Shown here: positions 40,463-45,966 of the stretch, in pieces
How the letters are laid out: the number at the start of each line of letters is the position of its first letter
Numbering within the stretch: position 1 is the first letter of the stretch
Sequence record: OZ346182.1
DNA: 64,000 bases
Source: a phage
Reading direction: 5' to 3' (one strand)
Translations under genes and position numbers: made by a program
Notes under the pieces: generated by a model
Seen by the model: only the letters and a program-made list of their open reading frames with translations
Database searches by the model: none
Told to the model about the DNA's origin: nothing

Positions 40463-41248
40463 ATGGGTATTGTAAAAATCATCAATGGCGATATCTTTGC
40501 CGCATTTGATAAAGGTAAGTTTGACATTATTGGTCACGGTTGCAACTGTATGAATTTAATGGGTGCAGGTATCGCTGACAAGATTTCTAAACTTTACCCA
40601 AAAGCATATGAGACAGATACAGAAGTCTATCTATATGCAGGTGGCATAGGTCACAAACCCTGTGAAAATTTACTGGGTAATTTCTCTGTAGCACGTTTAA
40701 AACAAGGTCGTATAGCTAACCTTTACACTCAGCTTAAGACTGGTAAAGATGCCCGATACAGTGCTTTAGAGTCATCTTTGAAGCAACTTAACAGATACTG
40801 TGAAGTTAATCAGTTGAAGAAAGTTGGTTTACCTATGATTGGTGCAGGTATCGGTGGACTTGACCCTCAAGCCGTCACAGTTATCATCAATCAGGTGATG
40901 AAGAGCGTAGATGTTTATCTATATGTCTATGAAGGAGAGATGTACCATAAGTTACTCTCAGGTTGGAAGAACTACTGTGAACCAGAATACTTTGCAGGTG
41001 TAGCAGTGTTCACAGATAACGCAGTTACCCTCTTCAGACGAAGAAAAGGTAAGATACATCAAAGTAACCCTCCGGTTGAAAAGATGTCTCTAAGTAACGC
41101 TCTAGTTACCCACCTGTCAAAGAGCAATCACAGAATTGCTGTAACATTTGGTAGTGATGCAGAAGCTTATATCTATGCAAGAACTGATGAGGATATTGAG
41201 GCAATCTTCTCTTCACCAGAAGTTACCTTCTTAGACGCAAAGAACTAA
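40463..41248 (+). CDS. macrodomain protein (TARG1/OARD1-like ADP-ribose hydrolase fold) with C-terminal extension
   Basis: INGDIFAAFDKGKFDIIGHGCNCMNLMGAGIA and VGLPMIGAGIGGLD align by eye to TARG1 GDLFA...HCIS...MGAGIA and LSMPRIGCGLD. Confidence 0.7.
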   Translation: MGIVKIINGDIFAAFDKGKFDIIGHGCNCMNLMGAGIADKISKLYPKAYETDTEVYLYAGGIGHKPCENLLGNFSVARLKQGRIANLYTQLKTGKDARYSALESSLKQLNRYCEVNQLKKVGLPMIGAGIGGLDPQAVTVIINQVMKSVDVYLYVYEGEMYHKLLSGWKNYCEPEYFAGVAVFTDNAVTLFRRRKGKIHQSNPPVEKMSLSNALVTHLSKSNHRIAVTFGSDAEAYIYARTDEDIEAIFSSPEVTFLDAKN

Positions 41249-41316
41249 GAAACTCTGTAGGATATTCACAATAGACTAAGCCTTTCTTATCTGGTAAATT
41301 TTTCAGGTAAGGAGGG

Positions 41317-41504
41317 CTTTTTCATTTCAGATTTGTGCAGGTAGAGTTCTGTAGAGAAATCTATAGAGAAAATTTTGAACTCCAAAGAGAAAATTCATTC
41401 TCAAACTGTGCAGGTAATCTCCAAAGAGCTTTTTCATTTTCAAAACGTGCAGACCCCGCTCAGGTCGGGCAAGAAAAATCATTTTAGAATTGTGCAGGTA
41501 GGTT
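41317..41504 (+). repeat. four direct repeats, consensus TTCATTTY-N6-TGTGCAGGTA, followed by a C-rich polypyrimidine tract (41515-41560)
   Basis: Copies at 41317-41346, 41391-41420, 41429-41458, 41475-41504. Confidence 0.5.
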
Positions 41505-41676
41505 TTTATAGACAGCCAGCCCAACCCCTCTCCCCCTCTTACTCCCCCTCTCCCCAAAAGTCAAGAGAAAAATTTGTAGCGGATTGAAAAATAATTCTTG
41601 ATTTGCGTTCTGTTTTGTGGTAGTCGTGCGCACCCGTTTCATTACAGTTTTGCCAAAAATATTTTTAAAATTTTTA

Positions 41677-41736
41677 TTGACTCTTTGAACGTGGTTATCT
41701 AATATTTGCATCAACGGAGAGGGAATAACCTTCCCC
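41677..41736 (+). promoter_or_regulatory. sigma70-like promoter (TTGACT-17-TAATAT) plus 5'-leader hairpin (element A copy 1)
   Basis: -35 41677-82, -10 41700-05; hairpin GGAGAGGGAATAACCTTCCCC 41716-36. Confidence 0.55.
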
Positions 41737-41771
41737 ACTAAATAACTAACCTTAAACTAGGAGACTCTAAA

Positions 41772-42152
41772 ATGGCATATCGTGCACCTAAATTCATCAA
41801 TAAAGACAACTTTCGCAACGCACTGGAGAAGGCACTTGATGAGAATTTCAAAGGTAACGTTATCGTTGTTCACTCGTTCAATTTCAAGTATGATATCAAC
41901 GGGAACAAAATCAACCACTACACTGCAACCATGCTAGATGGTACACTATCAAGTGAAAAAGCCGTACTGAATGCACTAGCAGGACGCGGAAAAGTATTAG
42001 TAAGATGTGATAAGAGACGTTATCAAGGCGGCGCATATGGTTACGACGATGCTATTTATCATCTTGAAAATATGGGCTATCAAGTAGAAAAAGCTGGGGT
42101 ATCACAAATCATCGGTAGTGATGGCTACGTGACAATCTTCAAAATTAAATAA
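41772..42152 (+). CDS. hypothetical protein (cassette gene 1)
   Basis: 126 aa; AGGAG RBS; no motif recognised. Confidence 0.45.
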   Translation: MAYRAPKFINKDNFRNALEKALDENFKGNVIVVHSFNFKYDINGNKINHYTATMLDGTLSSEKAVLNALAGRGKVLVRCDKRRYQGGAYGYDDAIYHLENMGYQVEKAGVSQIIGSDGYVTIFKIK

Positions 42153-42154
42153 AA

Positions 42155-42210
42155 AGTACTTTACAAGGGGCTTATAGTTCGATAAAGTAAGCCCCAGATA
42201 AAGAGCTTTA
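42155..42210 (+). promoter_or_regulatory. element B copy 1: TTTACA-17-TAAAGT promoter-like sequence overlapping hairpin GGGGCTT...AAGCCCC
   Basis: AAGTACTTTACAAGGGGCTTATAGTTCGATAAAGTAAGCCCCAGATAAAGAGCTTTAC. Confidence 0.5.
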
Positions 42211-42240
42211 CCACTAAATCCTAAATTGGAGAACTTAAAA

Positions 42241-42531
42241 ATGGCTACTATCAAAAACGTTGTAATTCCTGCAAAAACTCGTGATGACGCTCGCATTATG
42301 GCTAAAAAGTTAGGCGGGAAAGTGGTTGACAACGGAAAACAATCTGCTGTAAGATGGGGCGTGAAGACTGATAGACAGTTGAAGTTAAAAAATTCACCAA
42401 TAAACCTTTTTACATGTGTAAACACTATCGGGAAGACAAATGTATACACGAAAAAGGCATATATTAGACGCGTAGCCTTAACATCCCCCATTCGTACAAT
42501 GAGAGGTTATGCAAAACTGAAAATTAACTGA
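42241..42531 (+). CDS. hypothetical basic protein (cassette gene 2)
   Basis: ATG 42241 after GGAGAA; 96 aa. Confidence 0.4.
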   Translation: MATIKNVVIPAKTRDDARIMAKKLGGKVVDNGKQSAVRWGVKTDRQLKLKNSPINLFTCVNTIGKTNVYTKKAYIRRVALTSPIRTMRGYAKLKIN

Positions 42532-42534
42532 TAA

Positions 42535-44296: not shown

Positions 44297-44701
44297 ATGG
44301 CTATTAATAACCGTGAATTATCAATGTTAAAAGCACGTTTGACCGTTAATCGAATCAACATTATGACATCATCAGCGCCTGATGAGACATTGCACAACAT
44401 TATCGGAAAGATTCAAAGCGTTATTTTAGACGTTGAAAACGTAAAAAGTTCATTGGCTGACGTTGCAGCAGGTATCACGCTAGACGGTGCGCAATATGAA
44501 ATGTCCGACATGTTAGGCAAATCAAAGGTAATGAATAAAGAGCTTGATTTAAAGATGTTCCGATTTGCTGTTAAAGTATGGCTATCCGTCGAGTATGACG
44601 CTAATTTTGCAATCGCTGATTTCTTTGCCACTTGGTTACAACGTAATTTGACAAATCACGATTTTCGTGATGTCTGTGATGCAATTTATGCAGAACTCTA
44701 A
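44297..44701 (+). CDS. hypothetical protein (cassette gene 7)
   Basis: ATG 44297 after GGAGAA; 134 aa. Confidence 0.4.
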   Translation: MAINNRELSMLKARLTVNRINIMTSSAPDETLHNIIGKIQSVILDVENVKSSLADVAAGITLDGAQYEMSDMLGKSKVMNKELDLKMFRFAVKVWLSVEYDANFAIADFFATWLQRNLTNHDFRDVCDAIYAEL

Positions 44702-44710
44702 AAAATTTTG

Positions 44711-44770
44711 TTGACACTGGTTTTTAGATAGATTAAATTACACATCAACGGGGAGGGAATGACCTTCCCC
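44711..44770 (+). promoter_or_regulatory. element A copy 3
   Basis: -35 44711-16, -10 44734-39, hairpin 44750-70. Confidence 0.55.
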
Positions 44771-44802
44771 ACTAAATAAAGTCCTAAACTGGAGATTCTA
44801 AA

Positions 44803-45006
44803 ATGGCTATTATTAACGGTTTAACCATTGAAACTACACACATCAAAGATATCAAAGTTGGCGATATAGTCCTTTCCCACGGCGTAGAAAAAACTGTCAC
44901 TGCAAAGGATATCAAAGAGGATTCTTTCATGGGTAGGACTCTTTTCGGTGATTCTTATTGCTTAGGTTACCTTGCAGTTTTAAAAGTTGTCAAAAATAAC
45001 AAATAA
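44803..45006 (+). CDS. hypothetical small protein (cassette gene 8)
   Basis: 67 aa ORF. Confidence 0.35.
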   Translation: MAIINGLTIETTHIKDIKVGDIVLSHGVEKTVTAKDIKEDSFMGRTLFGDSYCLGYLAVLKVVKNNK

Positions 45007-45063
45007 AGTACTTTACATGGGGCTTATAGTTCGATAAAGTAAGCCCCAGATAAAGAGCTTTAC
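45007..45063 (+). promoter_or_regulatory. element B copy 5
   Basis: Near-identical to copy 1. Confidence 0.5.
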
Positions 45064-45090
45064 ACAATCCTTAAACTAGGAGATTAAAAA

Positions 45091-45339
45091 ATGATGAATT
45101 ATTTCAATATCCCTGATACCTGCCGACTGTTGACACGAGAAGAAAACTTGGGTAAACCTTTTCTTTACCACATGCCAGATAACACACCAAAAACTTATAG
45201 TTACAATGTCAACCGTTTTACCGCATACGCTGCAAAGAACGGTTATAAGTTGGTCACTCAAAAAGTAATGCTGGTTACAATCGCTGACGAGGTTCCTACG
45301 GTTGCAGTTAAACTAATTTTCTCAAAGAAAGTTAAATAA
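45091..45339 (+). CDS. hypothetical protein (cassette gene 9)
   Basis: 82 aa ORF. Confidence 0.4.
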   Translation: MMNYFNIPDTCRLLTREENLGKPFLYHMPDNTPKTYSYNVNRFTAYAAKNGYKLVTQKVMLVTIADEVPTVAVKLIFSKKVK

Positions 45340-45349
45340 AGTACTTTAC

Positions 45350-45407
45350 AAGGGGCTTATAGTTCGATAAAGTAAGCCCCAGATAAAGAGCTTTACACAA
45401 TCCTTAA
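45350..45407 (+). promoter_or_regulatory. element B copy 6
   Basis: Near-identical to copies 1 and 5. Confidence 0.5.
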
Positions 45408-45423
45408 ACTAGGAGATTCAAAA

Positions 45424-45966
45424 ATGAAATGCTATCACGGAACTACTCAAGAAAATTTCCTCAACCTGATTAATAACGGTGATAAACCATCAGGCGCATG
45501 GAATTGTTCGGATATGGACGGCAATTTTTACGTGTATCCAGAAAATAAAATCTATGGCGACGATGAGGAAGAAATAGCATCAGAGGGCATTCAGCAAGCT
45601 CTAGGCAATGCCACTATCACCGCAGCTTTTCAGATGAAGACTCAAAATATTGTTATCTTAGAACTCGATATTCCAGAGGATGAGCTAAATGATGATTATT
45701 CTTGTGATAATATGTCGAGTGTAGCAAGTTTTACAGAGTACTTTGATGTAAATTGGATTAAAAAGGTCTATACAACAGAGTTTAACGCTATGTATTCACC
45801 TTTTTGTCTTCCTTCATTGGATAACCCAAATTTAAACTATCTTGATGAGCCTCTGGAGCTTCTTGCTAAAAGTGTCCAACAGTCGGACAGTATTCAGGTT
45901 TTTTGTGACATCATGGACACACTAACGGGAAACATCGCAGAAGAGGATTTAAAGAGCTTTTTCTAA
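45424..45966 (+). CDS. hypothetical acidic protein with N-terminal Y-H-G-T motif (possible ADP-ribosyltransferase-fold protein)
   Basis: MKCYHGTTQENFLNLINNGD resembles the H-G-(S/T) NAD-binding motif of PARP/Tpt1/DarT-type folds; downstream NFYVYPE; assignment tentative. Confidence 0.3.
   Translation: MKCYHGTTQENFLNLINNGDKPSGAWNCSDMDGNFYVYPENKIYGDDEEEIASEGIQQALGNATITAAFQMKTQNIVILELDIPEDELNDDYSCDNMSSVASFTEYFDVNWIKKVYTTEFNAMYSPFCLPSLDNPNLNYLDEPLELLAKSVQQSDSIQVFCDIMDTLTGNIAEEDLKSFF

Follow-up and report, generated by a model that had tools for sequence, protein, structure and literature searches.

The window analysed here, a 64,000-nucleotide stretch of phage DNA (sequence record OZ346182.1), on balance appears to hold two separate genes of a Felix O1-like phage concerned with nicotinamide adenine dinucleotide (NAD+) and ADP-ribose, both located in an early region that would be driven by the host RNA polymerase. 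The first encodes a macrodomain protein, predicted to be an ADP-ribosyl hydrolase of the Tk.4/AdfM type, and the second a protein of 180 amino acids (aa), predicted to be a minimal ADP-ribosyltransferase (ART). The folds, conserved residues, gene organisation and phylogenetic distribution of the two are directly supported.

The 6.5-kb stretch around the two genes shares 94% identity with Escherichia phage vB_EcoM_ULIM3 and ~92% with Salmonella phage Mushroom, and hundreds more Felixounavirus records match it; hence, the window is assigned to a Felix O1-like myovirus (Ounavirinae). The macrodomain open reading frame (ORF) lies at 40463-41248 (+ strand), starts with ATG and encodes 261 aa, with the motifs GDIFA (residues 10-14), GHGCNC (24-29), MGAGIA (33-38) and LPMIGAGIGGLD (123-134). 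The second ORF (45424-45966, + strand) also starts with ATG, and its 180-aa product has the N-terminus MKCYHGTTQENFLNLINNGD and NFYVYPE at residues 34-40. Both ORFs, and every motif quoted for them in the initial annotation of this DNA, are found in the ORF listing of the window at the positions given there. The products match phrog_335 (4.7e-113) and phrog_3303 (4e-91), respectively, and both ORFs are real conserved genes and not chance ORFs. Deposited labels of the macrodomain gene are ‘phosphatase’, ‘putative phosphatase’, ‘O-acetyl-ADP-ribose deacetylase’ or ‘hypothetical protein’, and the other gene is a ‘hypothetical protein’ in each inspected record that annotates it.

For the 180-aa protein, nothing usable was obtained from Pfam, NCBIfam, PADLOC or a phmmer search against the PDB, and a word-indexed homologue search returned close Ounavirinae relatives only. 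An exhaustive HMMER search with a 17-sequence profile found 332 clusters at E<=1e-3, and the best 150 matches listed are nearly all single-domain proteins of ~150-245 aa that begin M-x-x-x-H-G-T-T. Among these 150 aligned relatives, W26, D91 and S93 are invariant (150/150), H5 is retained in 147, G6 in 143, T7 in 136 and Y36 in 148, and S29, C94 and M97 are likewise kept in at least 90%. Given that H5, G6, T7 and Y36 are so widely kept among divergent relatives, the H-G-T motif is no chance tripeptide. The C-terminal region from about residue 142 is helical and variable, and aligns poorly among distant relatives.

An AlphaFold2 model made without templates from 142 sequences (pLDDT 96.8, pTM 0.91) places the 180-aa protein in the ART superfamily, with the split beta-sheet ART fold. 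The suggestion of a possible H-G-T ADP-ribosyltransferase-fold protein at 45424, made initially from a short motif, is thus borne out by the model and by the conserved H5, G6 and T7, and the prospect that structure prediction would assign the protein to a non-ART fold did not materialise. Profile comparisons gave fainter signals. In a one-by-one Pfam scan, sub-threshold matches to the PARP catalytic domain (PF00644) were seen in 25 of 142 relatives (best E 0.0024) and to Tpt1/KptA in one. The PF00644 match in P0113, the one case examined, spans residues 2-21 against model positions 51-71 of 199, which is the beta1-alpha1 motif; the window protein itself gave no match at the PF00644 gathering score. 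The sole PDB match of a profile of the 142 relatives was the LFHGTAEKNFDLILKDG segment of a Tpt1 (21 residues, E 0.25), and the matches of a BFVD fold search were uncharacterised phage proteins and, weakly, DarT, Tpt1 and Arr.

In the model, H5 is part of strand 2-8 and Y36 of strand 35-39, so that both the H-G-(S/T) element and the aromatic Tyr strand of the H-Y-[EDQ] clade are present. Since the second signature residue is Tyr and not His, the family goes with H-Y-[EDQ] and not with the H-H-h (Tpt1) clade. Of the His-Tyr-Glu triad that had been envisaged, the His and the Tyr are kept (H5 and Y36) but the Glu is not: E80 was rejected as the catalytic Glu, being retained in only 61% of relatives, and the invariant acid is D91, which follows strand 74-82 and a short loop. 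The published catalytic residues of Arr, the rifampin ADP-ribosyltransferase, are H19, Y49 and D84. The Arr segments that carry them (YLH19GT, HIY49IT and IVEPEGAIEDD84PN; sequences confirmed against the PDB) have their analogues in CYH5GT, FY36VY and ILELDIPEDELNDD91YS of the phage family. The hhalign comparison put D91 on Arr D84 at a probability of 2.7%, and the pairing of phage D90-D91 with Arr ED-D is likewise weak (P 0.017) and was used as a concordant hint only. A putative triad H5-Y36-D91 (codons 45436-45438, 45529-45531 and 45694-45696, + strand) is therefore proposed from the topology and motif order, and Arr is the best local analogy for the protein. An Arr-like ART for small molecules, which would inactivate a compound of low molecular weight (an antibiotic-like toxin or a defence signal, for example), is very unlikely, as the profile-profile match to Arr is not significant and residues from about 142 onward find no counterpart in the hhalign match.

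Another arrangement considered is an RNA-repair module in which a Tpt1/KptA-like ART would take a 2'-phosphate off repaired RNA with NAD+ to give ADP-ribose-1'',2''-cyclic phosphate and a Poa1p-like macrodomain, the one labelled ‘phosphatase’, would clear ADP-ribose-1''-phosphate. The ART core of the 180-aa protein starts at residue 2 with no N-terminal lobe, and the protein is therefore not a Tpt1-type RNA 2'-phosphotransferase. With H-G-T beginning at residue 5, neither the N-terminal RNA-binding lobe with its Arg-His-Arg-Arg tetrad nor the H-H-h signature of Tpt1/KptA is found, Tyr standing in place of the second His in 148/150 relatives. The net charge of -24 further argues against RNA binding, and no RNA-repair gene is found among the conserved neighbours of the ART gene. 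Taken together, these points leave the RNA-repair module most improbable.

Strong acidity is a property of the whole ART family (median pI 4.25, median net charge -21) as well as of the window protein (pI 4.05, charge -24), whereas the macrodomain is basic (pI 8.6). This acidity speaks against a nucleic acid substrate such as those of DarT (DNA) or Tpt1 (RNA); neither a DarT model match nor the basic single-stranded DNA (ssDNA)-binding surface of DarT was found in the 180-aa protein. Given this extreme acidity and the lack of a lobe for binding RNA or DNA, a basic host protein or a small molecule is a more likely substrate than a nucleic acid, though the acidity would also favour a non-catalytic decoy role. 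An ART fold with no transferase activity was also considered, in which the protein would be an NAD+ glycohydrolase or a sponge for immune signals derived from NAD+ or ADP-ribose, or would bind a host protein as an acidic decoy or DNA mimic. This explanation is unlikely, given that near-invariant H-G-T and Y36 together with invariant D91 and S93 at 21-40% identity are typical of a maintained catalytic site, a pattern that does not tell hydrolase from transferase.

The preferred reading is that of a phage-restricted minimal ADP-ribosyltransferase, representing a previously unannotated family of the ART superfamily which, by the model, has an Arr-like H-Y-D signature and is unusually acidic. We infer that it is catalytically active, that NAD+ would be bound via the N-terminal beta1-alpha1 H-G-T element and Y36, and that the invariant D91 would act as the catalytic acid of an H-Y-D triad as in Arr. 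Its target could be a small molecule or a basic host protein; in the latter case, the modification would serve takeover or knock out a defence. More speculatively, the protein might found an undescribed, apparently phage-restricted family of minimal, extremely acidic H-Y-D ARTs that dock through a DNA-like negative surface on a host protein that binds DNA or RNA (for instance a defence nuclease, a nucleoid protein or a component of the transcription machinery) and inactivate it by ADP-ribosylation early in infection. This extension is doubtful, but if true it would constitute a new enzymatic anti-defence or takeover mechanism, and the neighbouring macrodomain gene and the NAD+ reconstitution genes would form a coordinated NAD+/ADP-ribose toolkit in Felix O1-like phages.

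Residues 1-160 of the 261-aa protein (40463-40942, + strand) match Pfam Macro (PF01661) above threshold, which makes the protein a member of the macrodomain superfamily, and also match the macro part of DarG models (NCBIfam, 1.5e-12; PADLOC, 3.9e-13). When a profile of 29 homologues was compared with all PDB sequences, the top matches included TARG1 (3.5e-17), DarG of M. tuberculosis (1.8e-16), SCO6735 (2.9e-15), Poa1p (3.1e-15) and BT1257, and the MacroD-type and viral Mac1 domains scored far weaker. As judged by this ranking, the domain is closest to TARG1 and its clade (DarG/TARG1/Poa1p) among macrodomain classes. The original assignment to a TARG1/OARD1-type macrodomain is thus upheld for the fold and clade, but not for the catalytic residues, as the Lys84-Asp125 dyad of TARG1 is absent. 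In the HMMER alignment, K84 (LITK84) corresponds to Q90 (NLYTQ90; codon 40730-40732, + strand) and D125 (GCGLD125) to G131 (GAGIG131). The active-site residues of DarG are Asn N22 and Lys K80 (PMC13309987); the counterpart of N22 is N28 (codon 40544-40546, + strand) and that of K80 is again Q90, both invariant among the 29 homologues, Q90 within the N-L-Y-T-Q motif. Residue conservation indicates that the Lys-to-Gln variant is a conserved state in the phage macrodomain clade. As the Lys is catalytic in TARG1 and DarG, this state raises a mechanistic question.

The match to the DarG equivalog NF048014 reached 47.5 bits against a cutoff of 250 and covered model positions 4-150 of 338 only, and the DarT-binding C-terminal domain of DarG was not found in the protein by this match. 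Fused to the macrodomain is a beta-rich domain of ~100 aa (residues 161-261; 40943-41248, + strand), which is confidently modelled and is present in Ounavirinae and some related phages. Searches with this domain found no relatives of it and gave no Pfam or fold assignment.

Relatives of the macrodomain were detected by tblastn in 2851 phage records, and in T4-like phages the corresponding gene is tk.4, which adjoins vs. The protein annotated as Tk.4 in the T4-like phage RB27 is 34% identical to the window protein across the whole macrodomain (E 3e-24). The two share the motifs HGCNC...MG(A/S)G(I/V)A, NLYTQ and P-x-IGAGIG, and both have Gln in place of Lys. In T4, tk.4 is reported to be the single gene needed for growth on a DarTG2 host and has been named adfM (2025 preprint, 10.1101/2025.11.20.689424). 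A chimallivirus macrodomain, also named AdfM, retains the Lys and strips DarT2-made ADP-ribose off DNA (PMC13309987, 2026). The window protein would thus be a further phage macrodomain of the Tk.4/AdfM type, one that carries an extra domain, and its most likely role is counter-defence like that of Tk.4/AdfM, as suggested by the 34% identity, which was obtained via the RB27 tk.4 annotation and not via the T4 sequence itself. By analogy we infer an anti-DarT2 activity, in which the macrodomain would strip ADP-ribose from DarT2-modified thymidines in phage ssDNA. Alternatively, it may hydrolyse soluble or conjugated ADP-ribose derivatives, which could also supply free ADP-ribose to the NAD+ reconstitution pathway of the phage. 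A similar suggestion, that the macrodomain feeds free ADP-ribose to this pathway, was made by the authors of a Pakpunavirus genome paper.

As the macrodomain could remove ADP-ribose and the ART could add it, the initial annotation read the two as an eraser and a possible writer acting together. If the two were such a pair, the ART would modify host or phage macromolecules and the macrodomain would reverse or limit the same mark, for temporal control or self-protection. The arrangement in Ounavirinae lends this some support: both genes sit in the early block, and the order HAD/polynucleotide kinase (PNK)-like gene, macrodomain gene, ART gene is conserved, with the macrodomain gene 4-5 kb upstream of the ART gene, even in Erwinia phages with an ART identity of no more than 39-40%. 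Both genes are likewise present in Pakpunavirus. However, in the window the two genes are not adjacent but 4.2 kb apart, with ~12 genes between them, and belong to separate transcription units, as marked by a terminator-like hairpin after the macrodomain gene and a promoter-like site ahead of the ART gene. Outside Ounavirinae, no macrodomain was found in the available sequence around the ART gene (up to 10 kb on each side) at five loci. In Pakpunavirus PS3, the macrodomain gene is 13 kb from the ART homologue on the other strand and directly adjoins the NAD+ reconstitution genes (Namat and Adps), being linked to these and not to the ART. The complete 133-kb genome of Vibrio phage 355E48.1 encodes the ART (E 2.5e-63), and a search of it at E<=1 found no macrodomain, Adps or Namat. 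Moreover, most of the ~2850 phage records with this macrodomain type have no ART, the ART family being present in 376, and the macrodomain acts without such an ART in T4.

The adjacency, co-transcription and co-occurrence that characterise a DarTG-like or sirtuin-macrodomain-like pair are therefore not found, and joint action of the two as writer and eraser, although conceivable, is improbable. The two look like independent members of the phage NAD+/ADP-ribose repertoire, and a looser functional relationship between them may exist in Ounavirinae. No gene within 2.5 kb of the ART gene is conserved across lineages, which also argues against an antitoxin-like or immunity partner of the ART.

The 376 phage records in which tblastn detected the ART family include Felixounavirus and related Ounavirinae of Escherichia, Salmonella, Shigella, Citrobacter, Erwinia, Hafnia and Pectobacterium, Pseudomonas Pakpunavirus-like phages (80 records) and Vibrio phages of 130-140 kb (23 records). 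No relative turned up when 185,579 genomes of bacterial and archaeal species were scanned, with a sensitivity limited to two exact peptide patterns.

The description of the region as an early-gene cassette array holds. Between 41.6 and 47.5 kb lies a run of short genes, each preceded by a repeated intergenic module made up of a sigma-70-like TTGACA-17-TAAATT promoter-like site, the hairpin GGGGAGGGAATGACCTTCCCC and a strong ribosome-binding site, TAAACTAGGAGATTCAAAAATG; these modules fit an early block read by the host RNA polymerase. The region upstream of the ART gene (45345-45423, + strand), as defined by the promoter scan and repeat families, lies within such a module and has a promoter-like TTTACA-17-TAAAGT (45345-45373, + strand) and the Shine-Dalgarno sequence GGAGATTCAAAA (45412-45423, + strand). 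It is overlapped by copies of repeats D1 (45329-45435), D3 (45385-45423) and D4 (45412-45443). Directly 3' of the macrodomain gene, a terminator-like hairpin with a 17-pair stem followed by the T-run TTTCATTTCA is present at 41278-41319 (+ strand), identified as a consensus match only.

Three kinds of repeat were seen in the intergenic DNA of positions 41666-47515, namely an 89-nt unit in five copies, with TTGACA-17-TAAATT, the hairpin GGGGAGGGAATGACCTTCCCC and CTAAATAAA; a 39-nt unit in nine copies, ending TAAACTAGGAGATTC-AAAA-ATG; and a 107-nt repeat in five copies, which takes in the starts of two ORFs beginning MENLKMA (42226 and 44282). The conserved hairpin between the promoter and the ribosome-binding site may act in RNA processing or regulation. 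The 101-aa early protein encoded at 42226-42531 (+ strand) gave a weak, sub-threshold BRCT match (E 0.0046, 17.6 bits against a cutoff of 21.3). The match is probably noise, but nothing further in the cassette array points to a known domain.

Upstream of the early block, a ribose-phosphate pyrophosphokinase-like gene (30254-31150, + strand; phrog_619, 1.7e-99) adjoins a nicotinamide phosphoribosyltransferase-like gene (31200-32981, + strand; phrog_448, 3.8e-202). The Adps-like and Namat-like genes of NAD+ reconstitution pathway 1 (NARP1) are located at 30254-32981, and the phage would carry at least four genes for handling NAD+ or ADP-ribose within 16 kb (Adps-like, Namat-like, macrodomain and ART). 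Phage Bas63 is presumably also a Felixounavirus. Its Namat is discussed in PMC12774641. In Pseudomonas phage vB_PaeM_PS3 (PS3), a cluster at 32995-40346 (minus strand) comprises the macrodomain gene, Namat and Adps as well as genes for a putative RNA ligase, a phosphoesterase and a phosphohydrolase, which suggests a combined NAD+-salvage and RNA-repair module that excludes the ART homologue at 20001-20585.

The HAD/PNK-like gene (37739-38434, + strand), 2-3 kb upstream of the macrodomain gene and in a position kept throughout Ounavirinae, encodes 231 aa that match a phrog ‘polynucleotide kinase’ family (1.9e-134) and include a HAD-type DIDGVL motif. The protein looks 3'-phosphatase-like, with no obvious kinase P-loop. 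The interval from the NARP1 genes to the early cassette block holds an rIIA-like (33557-35923, + strand) and an rIIB-like (36003-37112, + strand) gene. A 319-aa ORF (26082-27041, + strand) matches only the C-terminal half of the anaerobic ribonucleotide reductase NrdD (393-711 of 718), so that nrdD appears to be split or interrupted; nrdD is likewise annotated in three fragments in the record of Vibrio phage 355E48.1.

Felix O1-like phages and Pakpunaviruses are used in diagnostics and phage therapy for Salmonella, E. coli and Pseudomonas, and the ART gene they carry is still a ‘hypothetical protein’. A search of the literature library used here found no paper linking an ADP-ribosyltransferase to Felixounavirus, and the 180-aa protein goes unmentioned in the one paper on Pakpunavirus that deals with NAD+ genes. 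If this protein is an active ART, it adds a new family to the few phage ARTs and points to an unknown host target. With the macrodomain, AdfM-type counter-defence against DarTG2, which was recognised only recently, would extend to a second major enterobacterial phage group, and a phage with at least four NAD+/ADP-ribose genes offers a compact model for the way lytic phages handle NAD+-centred immunity.

Among systems already described, T4 Tk.4/AdfM, compared here via the RB27 protein annotated as Tk.4, is the nearest to the window macrodomain protein. The T4 protein is likewise the product of an early, non-essential phage gene, and protects from DarTG2, a phenotype known only for T4. The window protein differs in its C-terminal domain of ~100 aa, which is absent from RB27 Tk.4, and comes from an unrelated lineage (Ounavirinae). 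The catalytic Lys of DarG from M. tuberculosis, Thermus and Thermosipho (K80 in DarG) and of the chimallivirus AdfM (K78 in that of PhiKZ) is replaced by Gln in the window protein, which is also without the DarT-binding C-terminal domain of DarG. The differences from human TARG1/OARD1 and yeast Poa1p are the two-domain organisation of the phage protein and the alignment of its Q90 and G131 with K84 and D125 of TARG1.

For the ART, a survey of viral NAD+-ADP-ribose systems published in 2022 (Iyer et al., PMC9503650) includes several viral ART families of the H-Y-[EDQ] type, one of which, ‘p0068-like’, is paired with Dmd in enterophages. Neither the window nor any ART locus was found to hold a Dmd-like ORF. 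T4-like phages of 160-175 kb have Dmd homologues, no T4-like phage is among the ART matches, and the T4 61.2-like protein near dmd is unrelated to the ART family. The window family is thus probably a different one from ‘p0068-like’.

The known phage ARTs are a small set, comprising T4 Alt, ModA and ModB and AcrIF11. These differ from the putative H-Y-D phage family in catalytic signature, the T4 enzymes being of the R-S-E class, and have no detectable sequence similarity to it. The NAD+-binding lobe of Tpt1/KptA is comparable, but the phage ART is acidic, has Tyr for the second His, and is without the N-terminal RNA lobe and the Arg-His-Arg-Arg tetrad. Arr is of the H-Y-D class proposed for the phage family and has no significant sequence-profile relationship to this family, which is distinguished from it by a long inserted helix (residues 48-70), the S-C-x-N-M motif after D91, the C-terminal helical region and a very acidic charge.

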